DNA of 64,000 nucleotides, from the NCBI RefSeq assembly GCF_030013595.1, contig NZ_CP122768.1, one strand, 5' to 3'. How positions within the stretch are numbered: position 1 is the stretch's first letter; each line of letters starts with the position of its first letter. Shown in pieces: positions 22,932 through 29,290 of the stretch. This DNA comes from Escherichia coli (GTDB taxonomy: Bacteria; Pseudomonadota; Gammaproteobacteria; Enterobacterales; Enterobacteriaceae). Both the position numbers and the translations under genes were made by a program. The notes below the pieces were generated by a model. That model ran no database searches. It was not told the origin of the DNA and saw only the letters and a program-made list of their open reading frames with translations.

Positions 22932-23039
22932 TTATTCTGATTCCGTTTATTGCGAAAAAACTTGCCATCCCGCCCGATACGCAAATGGACCTGCCGTATC
23001 GGGTTTTTAATTTCTATGTAAACGAGGTCATGAAAACCG

Positions 23040-24680
23040 ATGGCTATTTCTCAAAACTTTAAAACTCAGGTTGTATTCGGGGGGCGAATAGACCCGTCGT
23101 TTCGGCGTGGTACAACAGAACTCAACGATGCAATTCGGCAGACGTCGTCTACTGTCGGAAAATTAACGAAAAGCCAGGATAAATTAAAAGACAAAATCGC
23201 AGCAATGAAACTGGCGGGTAAAGACGTTTCTGATTTATCTGCTCAGTATCAAAAGCTGGACCGTCGGATAAAAGCGACAACACAGGACCAGGAAGCTCTG
23301 AATACTCAGCTCGCTAAAAAACAGCGGCTGGAGAAATGGACGGGGCGCGCAAAAGGGGCTGCAAAATGGGGAGGGCGAGCGGCTGCAAGAACGATAAAGG
23401 CAACAGGAAAAGGCATCAAATGGGGGACGCTTGGCGCGGCGGGGCTCATTGGCGGTGCAGCTGCTGGTGCGCTGGCAATGAATGCAGAGACGTCAGAAAA
23501 ACTCGGTCTGGCGAAGTCCTACGGCGTTGGCGTCGAAAAATACGCCGCGTGGGACAATATCGGTAAAGCAGCCGGGCTTAACGGCGAAAATATCGGGGAT
23601 TTGTCAGAAGAACTTACAAATAAAATCGGCGAAATCGGAAACGAAAAAAACCTGAATCCCATGTTGTTTCAAATCGGCCTGACGAAAAAACGAATGGCTA
23701 GCTGGGATCGGGAAAAACAGTTTAATGAGGTTATGCGTCGCATCTCTGAAATGAAAGATGAGAAGCAAGCGGCGAGTCTTGCTGACCAGCTCATGGGGGG
23801 CGAAGCTAATAAAATCATGACGTATATGAAGGCCACTGGTAAAAGTTGGGAACAGACAATGGCCGACGCGCAAAAATCGAATCTGTTAACAAAAGAGGGT
23901 GCGGAAGGAGCGGCGCGTGCGCATGTATCAGTGACAAATCTGTGGGGCTCTATTACGTCGGGGCTTGCAGATACACTCGGTAAAATCGGGGGGGAACTCG
24001 CGCCGACGTTTGACTCAGTACGCGAAACATTTACAGCATGGTTTAAGGACAATCAGGGCGGATTTGTCAGCACAATTACTGAGTGGGTAAAGCCCGAAAG
24101 CATGAAAAAAATGTGGGAGGGGATAGTCAGTTTTGGCGAAGCTTGCGTTAAATTCGGAAAAATAATTTGGGCAGTAGCAAAAAAACTTGAGTGGTTAATT
24201 CCGGACGAGAAAACAGACGAGGAACAGCGCGTATATAACGAAGAATATAATAAGGCGTATCAGGAATTCATGGATAGTGGTGGTAAATATTCACCGAATC
24301 CCGGACAGGCAGCAGATAATGTAGCAAAAGCAAAAGCCGACGAAGCCGTAGATAATATGCGACACCCTGAACGTCTTGCTCGTGCAAAATCACAGGCTGA
24401 ATCAATGCTCTCATTTGCTAACCCGTTTACTGGATTAATAAATAAAAACTCAACGCCTGAATCACAAAACTCAGCAACGTTGAATATTGACGCGCTGAGA
24501 CAGGCAGTCGCAACTCCTGCTCCAGAGCAAAACAATAAAATTGAAATCAATATTGTCGGAGCAACTGATCCGCAATCAATACAGCAATCTGCAGCATCGG
24601 GGGTGCTCGATGGGTTGAGACAAGTTGCGAGTTCGTACAATCGTGGCGCGATGTTTGATAAACCAGCTCCGGCGGGGTGA
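23040..24680 (+). CDS. Tail tape measure protein
   Basis: Long alpha-helical, Gly/Ala-rich protein at the tape-measure position. Confidence 0.6.
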   Translation: MAISQNFKTQVVFGGRIDPSFRRGTTELNDAIRQTSSTVGKLTKSQDKLKDKIAAMKLAGKDVSDLSAQYQKLDRRIKATTQDQEALNTQLAKKQRLEKWTGRAKGAAKWGGRAAARTIKATGKGIKWGTLGAAGLIGGAAAGALAMNAETSEKLGLAKSYGVGVEKYAAWDNIGKAAGLNGENIGDLSEELTNKIGEIGNEKNLNPMLFQIGLTKKRMASWDREKQFNEVMRRISEMKDEKQAASLADQLMGGEANKIMTYMKATGKSWEQTMADAQKSNLLTKEGAEGAARAHVSVTNLWGSITSGLADTLGKIGGELAPTFDSVRETFTAWFKDNQGGFVSTITEWVKPESMKKMWEGIVSFGEACVKFGKIIWAVAKKLEWLIPDEKTDEEQRVYNEEYNKAYQEFMDSGGKYSPNPGQAADNVAKAKADEAVDNMRHPERLARAKSQAESMLSFANPFTGLINKNSTPESQNSATLNIDALRQAVATPAPEQNNKIEINIVGATDPQSIQQSAASGVLDGLRQVASSYNRGAMFDKPAPAG

Positions 24681-25105
24681 CAATGAGTGATGCAATAAAC
24701 GGTGCTGAAGACATCATGCTCGGCTTGGGTGATTTCATTTTTGCTATATCAACAGTAGCGTACAACAAACTGCAACGTAGTGACGCCTGGCGCTGGGCTC
24801 AGCAAACACGATTCGGGAAAAACGACGCGTTGCAGATAACTGGACGACCGAACCCCACTATCACGATTGATGGAAAAATAAACGCGTTATTTCTTGACGG
24901 GTGCGGCGTTGGCCTGTTGACGGATTTGCGGGCATTGGGAAACACGGGAGAACCCCAGCAGCTAGTGCTGGGGACTGGGGAAGTGAAGGGGTACTGGGTG
25001 CTGCGGGAACTAACTGAAACGCAAAACAGCTTTTTGATGGGCGGAACCCCAAAATCGCAGGACTTTTCACTCACGCTCGAATATTATGGAGTTTCGCTAG
25101 ATTAA
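24677..25105 (+). CDS. Tail protein (P2 gpU-like)
   Basis: Position and similarity pattern to P2 U. Confidence 0.6.
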   Translation: MTMSDAINGAEDIMLGLGDFIFAISTVAYNKLQRSDAWRWAQQTRFGKNDALQITGRPNPTITIDGKINALFLDGCGVGLLTDLRALGNTGEPQQLVLGTGEVKGYWVLRELTETQNSFLMGGTPKSQDFSLTLEYYGVSLD

Positions 25106-25274
25106 TACAAAATCAAGCGCTACCAGAGCACTTAACAAGTATAAAAATAAAAAAAACTACGAACATAAATGTAAAACAACCTGATGGTATTTTTTTGACG
25201 CCGAAATACTAATACCTCTCCGACTACTAAAATTAATTCTCATTATGAAATCCTTTTAATTAATGGGGCCCCAA

Positions 25275-25487
25275 ATGATTACATACACTACACGGGACGG
25301 TGACCGTCTCGATCAGATCTGCCTTGCTGTCTACGGGAGAACAGCAAAAACGACAGAAACCGTGTTATATCAGGTTTTAAATTACGGCGTAACGGATATG
25401 TGTGCCGTGTTTCGTGCAGGAGAAAAAATTGTTTTACCAGAAATCGACCCCGAACCGGTTAAAAAAGAAACGCAATTATGGGATTGA
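25275..25487 (+). CDS. Tail protein X (P2 gpX-like, LysM-like)
   Basis: DRLDQICLAVYGRT and C-terminal LW motif match P2 X; start trimmed to M5 of ORF 25263..25487. Confidence 0.7.
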   Translation: MITYTTRDGDRLDQICLAVYGRTAKTTETVLYQVLNYGVTDMCAVFRAGEKIVLPEIDPEPVKKETQLWD

Positions 25488-25490
25488 TGA

Positions 25491-26534
25491 ATGAGTGATT
25501 ACGTAAATACTGGCGTGGAAGCATGGAAGCCCAATTTTTATATATCTGCTGATAATGAAAACATCACGGATAAAATAAGAAAAGGTTTGATCAATATCAC
25601 GCTCACAGATTATGGTGGTTCGAGTAAACAGACAGACGAATTACGCGTAGCAATCGTTTCTGAAACTCTGAAAATTCCGGCCCGCGGAGTAAAAATCAGT
25701 ATTGGGCTCGGTTTCGGTAATCAGATAATTGATAAGGGTGTATACATCGTTGATGGTGCGAGCAGTGGCGGTGAACCCCGGGTAGTTGATTTCACAGCAA
25801 AAGCAGCGCCGATGAACGCATCAAAAGGCTCTCCGACAGTTCAGAGCAAAAAAACTCGCTCCTGGAGCGACGTCACTGTCAGCAATATCGTTGCAACAAT
25901 AGCGAGCGATAACGGGCTAAAACCACGCGTATCAAAGCGGTTTGCAGACAATATTATCACGCAACTCGATCAAGTCGGCGAGTCAGATATGCACCTGATG
26001 TCGAGACTAGCAACACGATTCGATGCGGTGAGTAAACCCGCGGGAGGGTACTGGATATTCCTGCCGCGCGGCGCGGGCGAATCTGTTAGCGGAGCGCCGC
26101 TTCAGCACTACACGCTCACGCGTCGTGATAACTCCAGCTGGGGTTATTCACGAAACGGACAAAGTGGCGATAGTGGTAGCGGTGGCGAAAATCCGGAACC
26201 GACGTATCTGATTAAATATCACGACACAGCAACTGGGCAGATCAAAGAATTGCGGACAGGTAGTGGCGGCGATCCTGTCATTGAATGGCCGACAGTTGAG
26301 CCGTCGCTCGACGCAGCGAAAGAAGCTGCACCAGGGCTCAAGGGCGGTGCAGCTAAAAAAGAGTTCTCTATGACGTACACGACGCCAGCGACGCTCGATT
26401 TAGTGTCGCTGACAGCAGAATGCAAAGTCACAACTCAAGGATTCGGGACCGAGGAGGACCGGGACTGGACTATCAACACGCTGAGCCTGACGCTTGCTGA
26501 AAACGGCTTTTCGGTTCGACTGTCACTGGAGTAA
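25491..26534 (+). CDS. Tail protein D (P2 gpD-like)
   Basis: Size and position as the last tail gene of a P2-type cluster. Confidence 0.65.
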   Translation: MSDYVNTGVEAWKPNFYISADNENITDKIRKGLINITLTDYGGSSKQTDELRVAIVSETLKIPARGVKISIGLGFGNQIIDKGVYIVDGASSGGEPRVVDFTAKAAPMNASKGSPTVQSKKTRSWSDVTVSNIVATIASDNGLKPRVSKRFADNIITQLDQVGESDMHLMSRLATRFDAVSKPAGGYWIFLPRGAGESVSGAPLQHYTLTRRDNSSWGYSRNGQSGDSGSGGENPEPTYLIKYHDTATGQIKELRTGSGGDPVIEWPTVEPSLDAAKEAAPGLKGGAAKKEFSMTYTTPATLDLVSLTAECKVTTQGFGTEEDRDWTINTLSLTLAENGFSVRLSLE

Positions 26535-26539
26535 ATGAA

Positions 26540-27487
26540 ATGGCAGTAATATCGGGTGTATACGCAAACGGGATCGGTGGGCCAGTTGTCGGCGTTCAGT
26601 TAGTATTAACAGCGCGGGTCACGAGTTCAGGCGTAGTAATGACCACCGTTGTAGAGCAAAAAACAGGCGCGGCGGGTGAGTACAAATTTGATATGAAGCC
26701 CGGCGTTTATGTCGTCACTGGTTGTGGCGCGTATCTGGGCGTGATTAATGTTAATCCGGACAGCCCAGACGGTACGCTAAACAACTATTTAACTAATTTT
26801 AGCGCAGACGAAATGACGCCGGCGGCGCTGACCGAGATCCAGGAACTGGTTAACGAGGCGAAGGCCGCGGCGGCTACTGCTCAGGATGCTGCTGCGCAGG
26901 CGATAACCGCAGTAGAAAAAATCGGCACGCCTGCGCCGTACATCCCGCCAGCGTGGGACGCCCCGGGGAGCACAATTTTTGGATATCTTTATATTGATAA
27001 AGGCACGTCATATCTACGGCCGGGGGAGATTGTTTCCGCGTCGTCAATTTACGTTGGCAACGTGACAATGATCGATAAGGGGAGCGGCCCGATGATCGGC
27101 ATGAGTCACACGCAGCAGCCCAGCGGTGGGAGTTGGCGTTTGCAAGGCAGCACAACACCAAATACAGACGCGAGTGTTAAATCAATGCGCAGCGCATTGA
27201 TTTTTCTCAGAATTGATAGCGACAGCCTGTTAACGCCCTCTCTGTTAAAAAGCGGTCGCGGCTCTGCGCGGGTGCGTAATTGCCGTTACGTAAACGCAGA
27301 GGGGACCTCGATTGATTGCGAGATTTTCACAGCAAACAGATGGATTCCGTTTACAGCGGCCGCTGATGACGTAACTGATTGGGGACGAAAAATTTTCAGC
27401 GACGCCCTAGCCGGTTTGTACGGTGTGATTGGCGTATTCGGCGCCCCCCTTTTTCCAGCTAATTGCAGTGAATCACCAGTAGTCTAG
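26540..27487 (+). CDS. Hypothetical protein (315 aa) following gpD; possible fibre-like/receptor-recognition protein or cargo
   Basis: ORF 5 nt after the gpD stop; Gly/Val-rich N-terminal segment then Ala-rich helical stretch; no confident family. Confidence 0.4.
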   Translation: MAVISGVYANGIGGPVVGVQLVLTARVTSSGVVMTTVVEQKTGAAGEYKFDMKPGVYVVTGCGAYLGVINVNPDSPDGTLNNYLTNFSADEMTPAALTEIQELVNEAKAAAATAQDAAAQAITAVEKIGTPAPYIPPAWDAPGSTIFGYLYIDKGTSYLRPGEIVSASSIYVGNVTMIDKGSGPMIGMSHTQQPSGGSWRLQGSTTPNTDASVKSMRSALIFLRIDSDSLLTPSLLKSGRGSARVRNCRYVNAEGTSIDCEIFTANRWIPFTAAADDVTDWGRKIFSDALAGLYGVIGVFGAPLFPANCSESPVV

Positions 27488-27732
27488 CCCCCTGACCATC
27501 ATGGTGTAACAGGAGTTCGCTTGGCTGAAACGGATTCTCGGCGCGGTTATCTCTTGAGTAAATGAAACGGACTTGGGGAGGCTATAGAGAGCGCCAATTT
27601 AGTATTAACGACAGTCGACTGCAAACGGCACCTGCGTTATTTTTATGTGTAAGCCGAAGGACGAAGAGCCTCTGGTGCTGGACGTTGTTATCGTTAGATG
27701 CTGACAATTTTTAATATTGGGAGTTTTCAAAC

Positions 27733-28152
27733 ATGGTCGTTAAAAATGCTCTTGCCTGTGGGATTATGCTTGCTCTTGTCGGTTGTGCTACAAAACCTGT
27801 CTCAAATGAACAAGCCACACCTGTTCCTGAAAAACAAATAATCAGTACCGCGTTACTCGAAAAACGAGACGGTACGGGAGAGGTGATCATCAAGCGTGAC
27901 TCGGGGTTCTTTGGAAGCGCGTGCTTTTCCCGTGTTTATGTTGATGGTAAAGAGGTGGCAGATTTAGGTACAGCTCAGAAAGTCGTTGTATACCCAACGA
28001 TTGGAGATCATGTCTTCAGCGCGTGGCCTAAAGGGGTATGTGGCGGTGGCATGAGCGAACAGGCGGGCAAGGTGACAACAGAACGTACTTTGATGTATCG
28101 CATAGGGTATGGATCAAACGGTGAATATGGCATTCACCCAACTGCGTTTTAA
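27733..28152 (+). CDS. Lipoprotein (139 aa), prophage cargo gene adjacent to the attachment site
   Basis: Signal peptide with lipobox LVGC; own upstream non-coding region (27488..27732); located between the tail genes and att. Confidence 0.55.
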   Translation: MVVKNALACGIMLALVGCATKPVSNEQATPVPEKQIISTALLEKRDGTGEVIIKRDSGFFGSACFSRVYVDGKEVADLGTAQKVVVYPTIGDHVFSAWPKGVCGGGMSEQAGKVTTERTLMYRIGYGSNGEYGIHPTAF

Positions 28153-28373
28153 TTTGTGTTGGGGTATGTGAGTTTTTCTCATACCCCTTTACCTCACTTT
28201 GCTCTTGACTGTTTGGTCACATCAAGGCGCAAAACATCACCATTTTTTGCCAAAAACCTTCAGAAGATGATGAGTAAGACGTGTCATAACTATATGATTA
28301 TTTGATATTCACACACACCATTATGTCCGGATAATTTACCATAATCATTTGAAATTATTGCACAAAACGAACA

Positions 28374-28429
28374 ATTTAAAATCCCTCGGCGTTCGCGCTG
28401 TGCGGGTTCAAGTCCCGCTCCGGGTACCA
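28374..28429 (+). tRNA. leuZ: Partial tRNA-Leu (leuZ-type, anticodon TAA), 3' 56 nt only (anticodon loop to CCA); prophage attachment-site core
   Basis: Sequence aTTTAAAATCCCTCGGCGTTCGCGCTGTGCGGGTTCAAGTCCCGCTCCGGGTACCA matches the 3' part of E. coli tRNA-Leu(UAA); the 5' half (acceptor and D arms) is replaced by phage sequence. Confidence 0.8.
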
Positions 28430-28472
28430 TGGGAAAGATAAGAATAAAATCAAAGCAATAAGCAGTGTCGTG

Positions 28473-28497
28473 AAACCACCTTCGGGTGGTTTTTTTG
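28473..28497 (+). terminator. Rho-independent terminator downstream of the tRNA locus
   Basis: aaaccacc ttcg ggtggttt followed by T7. Confidence 0.6.
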
Positions 28498-28624
28498 TGC
28501 CTGCAACTTGTCGTTACACCCTCCTTAATTTTTAATCACCGGCAAAGCCACTCAAAAAGTATCTCTGTTACGGACCGACATGTAAGATAGGTGCTGGCGA
28601 GTTGAGATCCACAAGGAAAAGCGT

Positions 28625-29290
28625 ATGAAAACGGGACCGTTAAACGAAAGTGAGTTGGAATGGCTGGACGATATTCTGACCAAATACAACACTGACCACG
28701 CCATTCTTGATGTGGCGGAGCTGGACGGTTTATTGACGGCGGTGTTGAGTTCTCCGCAAGAGATTGAACCGGCACAGTGGCTGGTTGCCGTGTGGGGTGG
28801 GGCTGACTATGTGCCACGCTGGGCGTCAGAGAAAGAGATGACGCGCTTTATGAACCTGGCTTTTCAGCATATGGCCGATACCGCAGAGCGTCTGAACGAA
28901 TTCCCGGAGCAGTTTGAGCCGTTATTCGGCTTGCGAGAAGTCGATGGCAGCGAGCTGACGATTGTTGAGGAGTGGTGCTTTGGCTATATGCGGGGCGTGG
29001 CACTTTCTGACTGGTCAACGTTACCCGATTCGTTAAAACCAGCGCTGGAGGCGATTGCGCTGCACGGTACTGAGGAAAACTTCGAGCGGGTAGAGAAGAT
29101 GTCGCCAGAAGCGTTTGAAGAGAGCGTAGATGCCATTCGACTGGCGGCGCTTGATCTACATGCGTACTGGATGGCGCATCCGCAGGAAAAAGCTGTTCAG
29201 CAACCGATCAAAGCAGAAGAGAAACCGGGGCGTAATGATCCTTGCCCGTGCGGTAGTGGTAAGAAATTTAAGCAGTGCTGCCTGCATTAA
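28625..29290 (+). CDS. yecA: SEC-C metal-binding domain protein YecA
   Basis: C-terminal [17 protein letters not shown] motif; K-12 synteny next to tyrP. Confidence 0.9.

Follow-up and report, generated by a model that had tools for sequence, protein, structure and literature searches.

The window analysed here, a 64,000-nucleotide stretch of Escherichia coli DNA, contains a prophage whose late genes are all located on the + strand and end beside a 3' fragment of tRNA-Leu and the chromosomal genes yecA and tyrP. Its tail module was found to follow the gene order of the P2/R-pyocin type, namely sheath, tube, gpE-like chaperone, tape measure, gpU, gpX, gpD, and fibre; besides gpU and gpX (Table 1), the sheath, tube, and chaperone also gave Pfam matches, and gpD matched PF05954 weakly. 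As the original prediction had stated, gpU and gpX are separated by an AT-rich space within a tail operon that is otherwise tightly packed, the packing being borne out by the ORF coordinates. The GC content of the spacer was 0.31 against a tail-module mean of 0.48, and only 0.7% of the 169-bp segments of the module were as AT-rich. Leaving aside the 108 bp that follow the gpE-like chaperone and the space past the last tail gene, the spacer is the largest intergenic space of the module. The 108-bp space (22932-23039), which extends from the chaperone gene to the tape-measure gene, is the only other sizeable gap in the module. In P2-type phages, the frameshift extension E+E' is encoded between these two genes, and in the relative L023 a 40-aa ORF is called in the corresponding space.

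The predicted spacer length of 157 bp holds when the ATG at 25263 is taken as the start of gpX, but the spacer becomes 169 bp (25106-25274) with the better-supported start at 25275. The ATG at 25263 has no ribosome-binding site, and the 4-codon extension that it would give to gpX is not conserved. In contrast, position 25275 is preceded by GGGG, and the PGAP annotation of a near-identical genome (99.6% identity over a 1,001-nt query, differing from the window within the spacer by 4 indel bases) agrees on this start with the N-termini of all relatives; the length of 169 bp was adopted on these grounds. No + strand ORF crosses the spacer in the ORF listing.

Table 1. Features of the gpU-gpX junction in the window (window coordinates) and contents of the same junction in related tail clusters
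Feature	Position or locus	Strand	Basis or remark
gpU-like tail protein gene, left flank of slot	24683-25105	+	Pfam PF06995, E 3.2e-31; PGAP start from near-identical genome; stop TAA 25103-25105
AT-rich spacer, assigned as cargo (moron) slot between gpU and gpX	25106-25274	.	GC 0.31 vs 0.48; homology breaks at flanking codons
gpX tail protein gene, right flank	25275-25487	+	Pfam PF05489, E 5.9e-16; start 31 nt from divergent antisense ATG
Shine-Dalgarno AAGGA, 7 nt upstream of antisense ATG	25251-25255	-	
N-terminal half of antisense ORF (MRINFSSRRGISISASKK)	25190-25243	-	Protein-level conservation in E. fergusonii, Salmonella, and metagenomic relatives
Homopolymer, T7 on + strand and A7 on - strand; frameshift site	25190-25196	.	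8 in relatives with intact ORF
C-terminal half, -1 frame (IPSGCFTFMFVVFFIFILVKCSGSA), with transmembrane helix and KCSGS	25113-25190	-	Stop TGA 25113-25115; best match of subfamily HMM, E 9.8e-15
3-nt (AAT) deletion relative to relatives	25148-25149	.	In frame; one Ile lost from transmembrane helix
Terminator-like hairpin (10 pairs), then UUUUGUAUU	25104-25136	-	Overlaps last ORF codons and stop; ends at gpU stop codon
Protospacer 25251-25282 with ATG PAM 25283-25285	25251-25285	-	100% match to 32-nt type I-E CRISPR spacer of other E. coli strains
gpU and gpX abutting or overlapping (0 bp)	L036-L041 (six relatives)		gpU 62-65% identical
Junction of 84-87 bp, no ORF	L024		
Imm_superinfect gene, 79-101 aa	L003, L016/L033, L017/L034, L025 (E. 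whittamii), L043 (five lineages)	reverse	PF14373, E 5.8e-11 (L003); PHROG 1039
158-aa protein, hydrophobic signal-peptide-like N-terminus	L044	reverse	
Junction of 590 bp, ORFs not resolved	L035		
166-aa long form, then 220-aa gene	L046 (Salmonella)	reverse	

Comparison with related tail clusters, a check that the original prediction had itself proposed, revealed that the junction occurs in empty, window-type, and alternative-cargo states (Table 1). The window-type spacer is conserved within one lineage and is absent or replaced in others, so that the slot measures 0, 84-87, 169-190, 237-250, 590, or 639 bp among the relatives. All slot genes identified with confidence read against the tail operon. 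When the window allele is compared with the Imm_superinfect allele, homology stops exactly at the gpU stop codon and restarts at the gpX start codon. A moron, in the Juhala/Hendrix definition, is additional DNA of unusual composition that separates two genes found side by side in related phages, AT-richness being typical (PMC3594210). Both properties were found here: gpU and gpX are adjacent in L036-L041 and separated by 84-639 bp in the others, and the base composition deviates as described above. The definition further names a promoter and a terminator of its own and expression from the repressed prophage; sigma-70 scans gave nothing above background ahead of the antisense ORF described below, and its terminator-like hairpin occurs in the E. 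coli lineage only. As judged from these sequence comparisons, gpU and gpX enclose a hot spot for cargo, and the spacer is a compact accessory-gene cassette, or moron. The recombination scar suggested by the original prediction thus stood in part, in that the junction is a hot spot of recombination and cargo and the short ORF described below may remain from a longer gene, but the suggestion missed a conserved protein-coding gene on the opposite strand. In the Salmonella enterica relative (L046 3001-4233, GCA_007144365.1), the second reverse gene of the slot encodes 220 aa with a weak hint of an OB-fold (PF19913, E 0.004), and the short form found in E. coli could be a deletion derivative of an arrangement like this one.

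The segment is present in about 450 of the 5,426 complete E. coli genomes, mostly of ST131, as well as in four GenBank records of predicted prophages, with no other match in the phage collection. When the spacer alone was compared with E. coli genomes and phages, it occurred only in the gpU-gpX context and in CRISPR spacers. All 434 full-length matches in E. coli genomes fell in the 95-99% identity band, and among the spacer matches listed the identity was 97.8% in every case except two (98.4% and 96.8%). A profile scan of genome contigs with gpU detected one locus only, in E. whittamii. Since the protospacer at the gpX end of the spacer is matched perfectly by a CRISPR spacer and carries a functional ATG PAM, the phage family appears to have been sampled by CRISPR adaptation in E. 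coli. The CRISPR spacer, ATCCTTTTAATTAATGGGGCCCCAAATGATTA, is flanked by CGGTTTATCCCCGCTGGCGCGGGGAACAC repeats beside cas2e/iap and lies in an annotated CRISPR in GCM39-10-2-9-3-1, S40, and PapRG-06-3; about 11 complete genomes carry the match without the prophage context.

Several further observations concern the prophage surrounding the slot. At 28376-28430 the window carries the 3' half of a tRNA-Leu, spanning the anticodon loop TTTAAAATC to ...CCGGGTACCA, and a strong terminator lies behind it at about 28470-28500; the equivalent 105 nt are labelled 'tRNA-OTHER' by PGAP in the near-identical genome, and ARAGORN identified no tRNA or tmRNA anywhere in the window. This fragment probably represents what is left of the attachment site of a prophage that had inserted into leuZ, next to yecA, in which case the intact tRNA would lie beyond the left end of the window. 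The gene for a 'prophage tail fibre N-terminal domain' protein following gpD (26540-27487; L007 4947-6773) varies widely in length between close relatives, encoding 315 aa here and 307, 336, or 608 aa elsewhere, with some lacking it, and thus is a second variable point, located at the end of the tail module. In ST131 (L004 3896-4669 against window 25491-27487) and in the four 'vB_EcoM' records, gpD is truncated, with 257 aa compared with 347 aa, and no fibre N-terminal-domain gene is present; the widespread ST131 copy is therefore a decayed tail-cluster remnant in which the small antisense ORF is still intact. Distant tail-cluster relatives (L048 251-2882 and L049 1-359) lie beside partition genes of the ParA/CbiA and SopB types, suggesting a plasmid-prophage lifestyle for part of the phage family. 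In the metagenomic L023 (4674-5426), the tail cluster is directly followed by opposite-strand genes for a Tlde1-domain protein and Hcp (type VI secretion). An IS1 insertion in the spacer was considered and rejected: L005 (E. coli TUM2367, 2168-3044) and strain 23556 (H16) carry IS1 within gpX instead, truncating tail protein X.

In the majority allele, the - strand of the spacer bears a 44-codon ORF, MRINFSSRRGISISASKKIPSGCFTFMFVVFFIIFILVKCSGSA, whose product consists of a basic N-terminus, one strongly hydrophobic predicted transmembrane helix, and a short C-terminal KCSGS motif. PGAP leaves this ORF uncalled in every RefSeq E. coli record inspected. The antisense ATG is separated from the gpX start by 31 nt in the window and by 33, 31, and 31 nt in L046, L047, and L049, respectively, and upstream sequences of eight of nine diverged lineages were read as containing AGGA or AGGG at 7-10 nt from the ATG. 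The terminator-like hairpin at the distal end of the ORF is confined to the E. coli lineage, being absent in E. fergusonii and L021/L023 and not conserved in other relatives. Two other readings of this DNA were tried and discarded. An 18-aa internal ORF (MFVVFF...) was considered as an Ibs-like toxin, and its ATG is an Ile codon in L006, L013, L019, and L046 and has no ribosome-binding site; a lipoprotein reading of 'PSGC'/'GKC' failed on the lack of a hydrophobic signal segment before the first Cys and on a Lys at -1 that does not make a lipobox.

The substitution pattern between two metagenomic relatives, L021 and L023, bears directly on whether this ORF is a gene. Both have a gap GC content of 0.45 rather than 0.29, a gpU about 66% identical, and a 60-aa homologue of the peptide. 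Over codons 1-46 they differ at 22 nucleotides, 20 of which lie at codon position 3, with 18 of the codon changes synonymous and 3 replacing the residue; the chance of at least 20 of 22 differences falling on one codon position was calculated by hand to be about 3e-8. Beyond KCSES, no third-position bias was seen. Between the ST131-type and E. fergusonii sequences, the gap DNA is 61% identical, both peptide halves are kept, and the replacements are conservative; within KCSGS, the Ser codons swap from TCT to AGC and from AGC to TCA.

Among 1.84 billion representative proteins, a family profile matched only six, four of which were then placed on contigs. Three of these, P0020 (166 aa, Salmonella), P0022 (173 aa), and P0023 (43 aa), are encoded divergently from gpX at a distance of 31-33 nt, and P0021 (67 aa), located at the end of such a tail cluster, is the one located member not beside gpX. 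With an HMM built from one subfamily, the other subfamily scored higher than every one of roughly 2,230 decoys. The top matches of the subfamily HMM were the two halves of the window ORF (E 9.8e-15 for the C-terminal half and 4.3e-10), and the ORF shows the features that define the family, namely the pattern 'MR..N..G..VS.S / TM / KCSG' and the gpX-divergent position at about 31-33 nt. In the long forms (166-173 aa), the helix is followed by an extra domain predicted with pLDDT values of 80-93 and composed of helices and a five-strand OB-like barrel, which would be extracytoplasmic given the N-in topology that we infer. Comparison of this predicted structure with the PDB and BFVD returned weak generic OB matches only and no functional lead.

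Searches of Pfam, NCBIfam, PHROG, and PADLOC with the peptide and the long forms gave no significant match, and the PADLOC models matched none of the seven slot proteins submitted. A word-indexed protein search retrieved three entries only for the 44-aa peptide and only Salmonella 'hypothetical proteins' for the long form, and a literature search for the peptide sequence found nothing. Database names are confined to 'hypothetical protein', and this tiny family includes no characterized member. Based on the codon signature, the retention of the peptide despite DNA divergence, and the homologues at the same position, the antisense ORF is, on sequence evidence, a real gene family under purifying selection rather than an accidental open frame. 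The short form may be no functional unit but what truncation left of the long form; the selection seen on codons 1-46 after truncation argues for a function of the short form. Whereas morons and prophage hot spots as such are known (PMC3594210; PMC9122126), the gpU-gpX slot itself and the unannotated small-protein family, intact in many E. coli genomes, are new here.

The copy in the window differs from the majority allele by an A7 in place of A8 in the Lys-Lys run, and therefore the frame shifts after codon 18; frame 0 of the window runs to a stop at 25157-25159, corresponding to 28 aa. Among 25 sequences (the window together with 24 fetched loci, of which some are one IMG/VR contig fetched twice), the run measured 8 in 21, 9 in one (L007), and 7 in three (the window, L009, and L026). 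The fully intact 44-codon ORF was found in 20 of the 25, ST131 included, with L050 left out because the other homopolymer is shortened there. In E. fergusonii L019 the first run is one base short (a -1 state), yet both halves are conserved. The frame is thus broken at homopolymers in three to four sampled lineages (the window, L007, L050, and L019), indicating that the antisense gene is dispensable. The only other copy of the window allele (L009/L026) is sequence-identical to the window and perhaps derives from the same genome, so that a homopolymer assembly error is possible. Unless the frame is restored by slippage on A AAA AAA, the window copy most probably has no activity.

Whether the spacer needs a gene to explain it was weighed against three accounts without one. 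One would regard it as junk from illegitimate recombination, with the ORF a chance open frame in T-rich DNA. Such an account sits well with the AT-rich, homopolymer-bearing composition, the broken frame of the window copy, and the silence of PGAP on the ORF in the records inspected; it leaves unaccounted for the codon-position bias, a protein conserved across DNA of down to 61% identity and of GC contents of 0.29 and 0.45, a conserved ribosome-binding site, and homologues at the same position in Salmonella and metagenomes. For the family, the junk account is already contradicted by the bias, the conservation, and the positional homologues, and we give it very little credence. Two others had been raised by the original prediction, and neither gained support. 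Of all the readings considered, a + strand internal sigma-70 promoter boosting gpX, gpD, and the downstream tail genes seemed the least probable: the region is AT-rich and contains a TTGACG hexamer at 25195-25200, but this hexamer has no -10 partner at 15-19 nt, a sigma-70 consensus scan found no promoter in the spacer on either strand, and a PWM scan for sigma-70 detected nothing above background on either strand, the best + strand score of 6.2 bits ranking at the 40th percentile of background segments of the same size. Upstream of the antisense ORF, the best score was 5.0 bits without positional conservation, both scans being of the sigma-70 type only. Moreover, relatives with 0 bp between gpU and gpX or with unrelated cargo require no specific spacer sequence, and since U and X abut in relatives, expression of X to D needs no spacer. 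A non-coding small RNA, or a purely cis-antisense regulator of the tail mRNA (for instance a processing site uncoupling U from X-D), would draw on the full complementarity that any reverse-strand transcript has, by geometry, to the late mRNA, and on the hairpin and U-tract of the - strand. Nevertheless, an Rfam search over 24500-29000 at E<=10 gave no match inside the spacer (25106-25274), whole-spacer folding was no better than that of dinucleotide shuffles (z-scores of -0.41 and +0.40 on the two strands), the hairpin is not conserved, and codon-periodic substitutions are not explained by an RNA-only function; this reading was accordingly considered highly improbable.

Two further accounts accept the peptide and differ on what the broken frame or the peptide means. 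The A7 frame might be decoded on purpose, with -1 frameshifting of the ribosome or slippage during transcription giving low, tunable amounts of the full peptide, or the run might serve as a phase-variation switch. A AAA AAA (25190-25196, - strand) is indeed, in frame 0, a heptamer that fits X XXY YYZ perfectly, a -1 slip on it would yield exactly the S-K-K-I-P junction of the in-frame allele, E. fergusonii L019 is likewise in the -1 state with both halves conserved, and run lengths of 7, 8, and 9 all occur. Of what programmed frameshifting calls for, however, only the slippery run in the correct frame was found, and the shifted arrangement is not conserved: in-frame A8 is by far the most frequent allele, the distant members P0022 and P0023 have no lysine run, no stimulatory structure was identified, and the sole other copy of the A7 allele is identical to the window, where an assembly error is possible. 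The +1 state of L007 and the break of L050 at the other homopolymer are what random slippage mutation predicts. This mixture of -1, +1, and second-run breaks, together with the missing Lys run of the distant members, points to ordinary homopolymer mutation rather than programmed recoding, and we regard deliberate decoding as very improbable. Alternatively, the peptide could be a toxin resembling those of type I, restrained by the antisense late-operon RNA or by poor translation, with the frameshifts as an escape from toxicity. The type I toxins of enterobacteria (Hok, Ldr, Ibs, ShoB, and TisB) are short hydrophobic peptides encoded opposite another transcript, and the product here, of about 44 aa with a single hydrophobic helix and antisense to another transcript, is of the same general kind; the recurrence of frame-breaking indels in two homopolymers would also fit. 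Unlike these toxins, however, the family shows no significant similarity to any Pfam or NCBIfam family, including the toxin families held there, has 166-173-aa forms with a folded domain predicted to be extracytoplasmic, conserves its hydrophilic N-terminal 18 residues, and has no evident dedicated antitoxin RNA (no Rfam match, structured RNA, or + strand promoter in the gap). The stable maintenance of the intact allele in hundreds of ST131 genomes also speaks against toxicity, and a toxin is quite improbable.

We therefore favour the reading in which the slot carries a real antisense gene that is broken in the window, a core of the interpretation in which our confidence is high. The fuller explanation, a cargo-slot gene for an antisense membrane protein that is inactivated here, with a proposed exclusion-type role, is probable as a whole. 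The specific proposal that the peptide acts in superinfection exclusion is itself tentative and rather doubtful; it is an analogy drawn from the Imm_superinfect genes that share the slot and the strand in sister prophages, and from HK97 gp15, an exclusion protein of small size that resides in the inner membrane and whose gene lies within a tail operon. According to this proposal, the antisense gene would be expressed in the lysogen while the late operon is silent, as with other morons; the peptide would insert into the inner membrane with its N-terminus inside, and would target either the envelope or phage entering the cell, as superinfection-exclusion proteins do. Late-operon transcription through the antisense gene would oppose its expression during lytic growth. 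A still bolder version would make the 'KCSG' gpX-divergent membrane anchors an unrecognized prophage family for superinfection exclusion or envelope modification, kept intact by roughly 8% of complete E. coli genomes, ST131 among them, switched by length changes or slippage in two homopolymers and opposed by antisense late transcription, with the window copy as an 'off' phase variant; this version is unlikely.

Annotation pipelines routinely miss small membrane proteins in 'intergenic' prophage DNA, and characterized examples such as HK97 gp15 decide which phages can infect a lysogen. The intact allele occurs in pandemic ST131, its slot is occupied in other relatives by a recognized superinfection-immunity gene, and the family offers a concrete and cheaply testable candidate. 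For the window itself the result is modest, its copy being frameshifted and probably inert.

The closest known systems include the hot spots of accessory and defence genes in P2-like prophages, of which the one between gpA and gpQ next to cos carries large defence systems (Rousset et al. 2022, PMC9122126; P2 old/tin locus). The gpU-gpX slot resembles them as a fixed junction of conserved phage genes with alternative cargo in each relative, and it differs in lying in the tail module of a different prophage family and in carrying very small membrane or secreted proteins. Another is the HK97 gp15 moron of the tail operon (Juhala et al. 2000; Cumby et al. 2012; reviewed in PMC3594210), whose small single-pass inner-membrane product keeps superinfecting phages from injecting their genomes. 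Like gp15, the gene described here occupies extra DNA of deviant base composition in a tail operon, between genes adjacent in relatives, and is predicted to encode a small single-pass membrane protein. Unlike gp15, which belongs to a siphovirus and lies at the chaperone-tape measure site, it is found between gpU and gpX of a contractile tail, runs antisense to the tail operon, and has no recognized promoter; its function is inferred, and the window copy is frameshifted. Similarity of the peptide to gp15- or YebO-like exclusion proteins was covered through the Pfam and PHROG profiles, which gave no significant match of any kind, with none to PF14373 at E<=10. The Imm_superinfect proteins (PF14373; PHROG 1039, 'immunity to superinfection'), with two or three helices in 79-101 aa, differ from the window-type peptide, which has one helix in 44 aa, but they are likewise small and very hydrophobic and, in L003, L025, L034, and L043, are encoded in the same slot and on the same strand.
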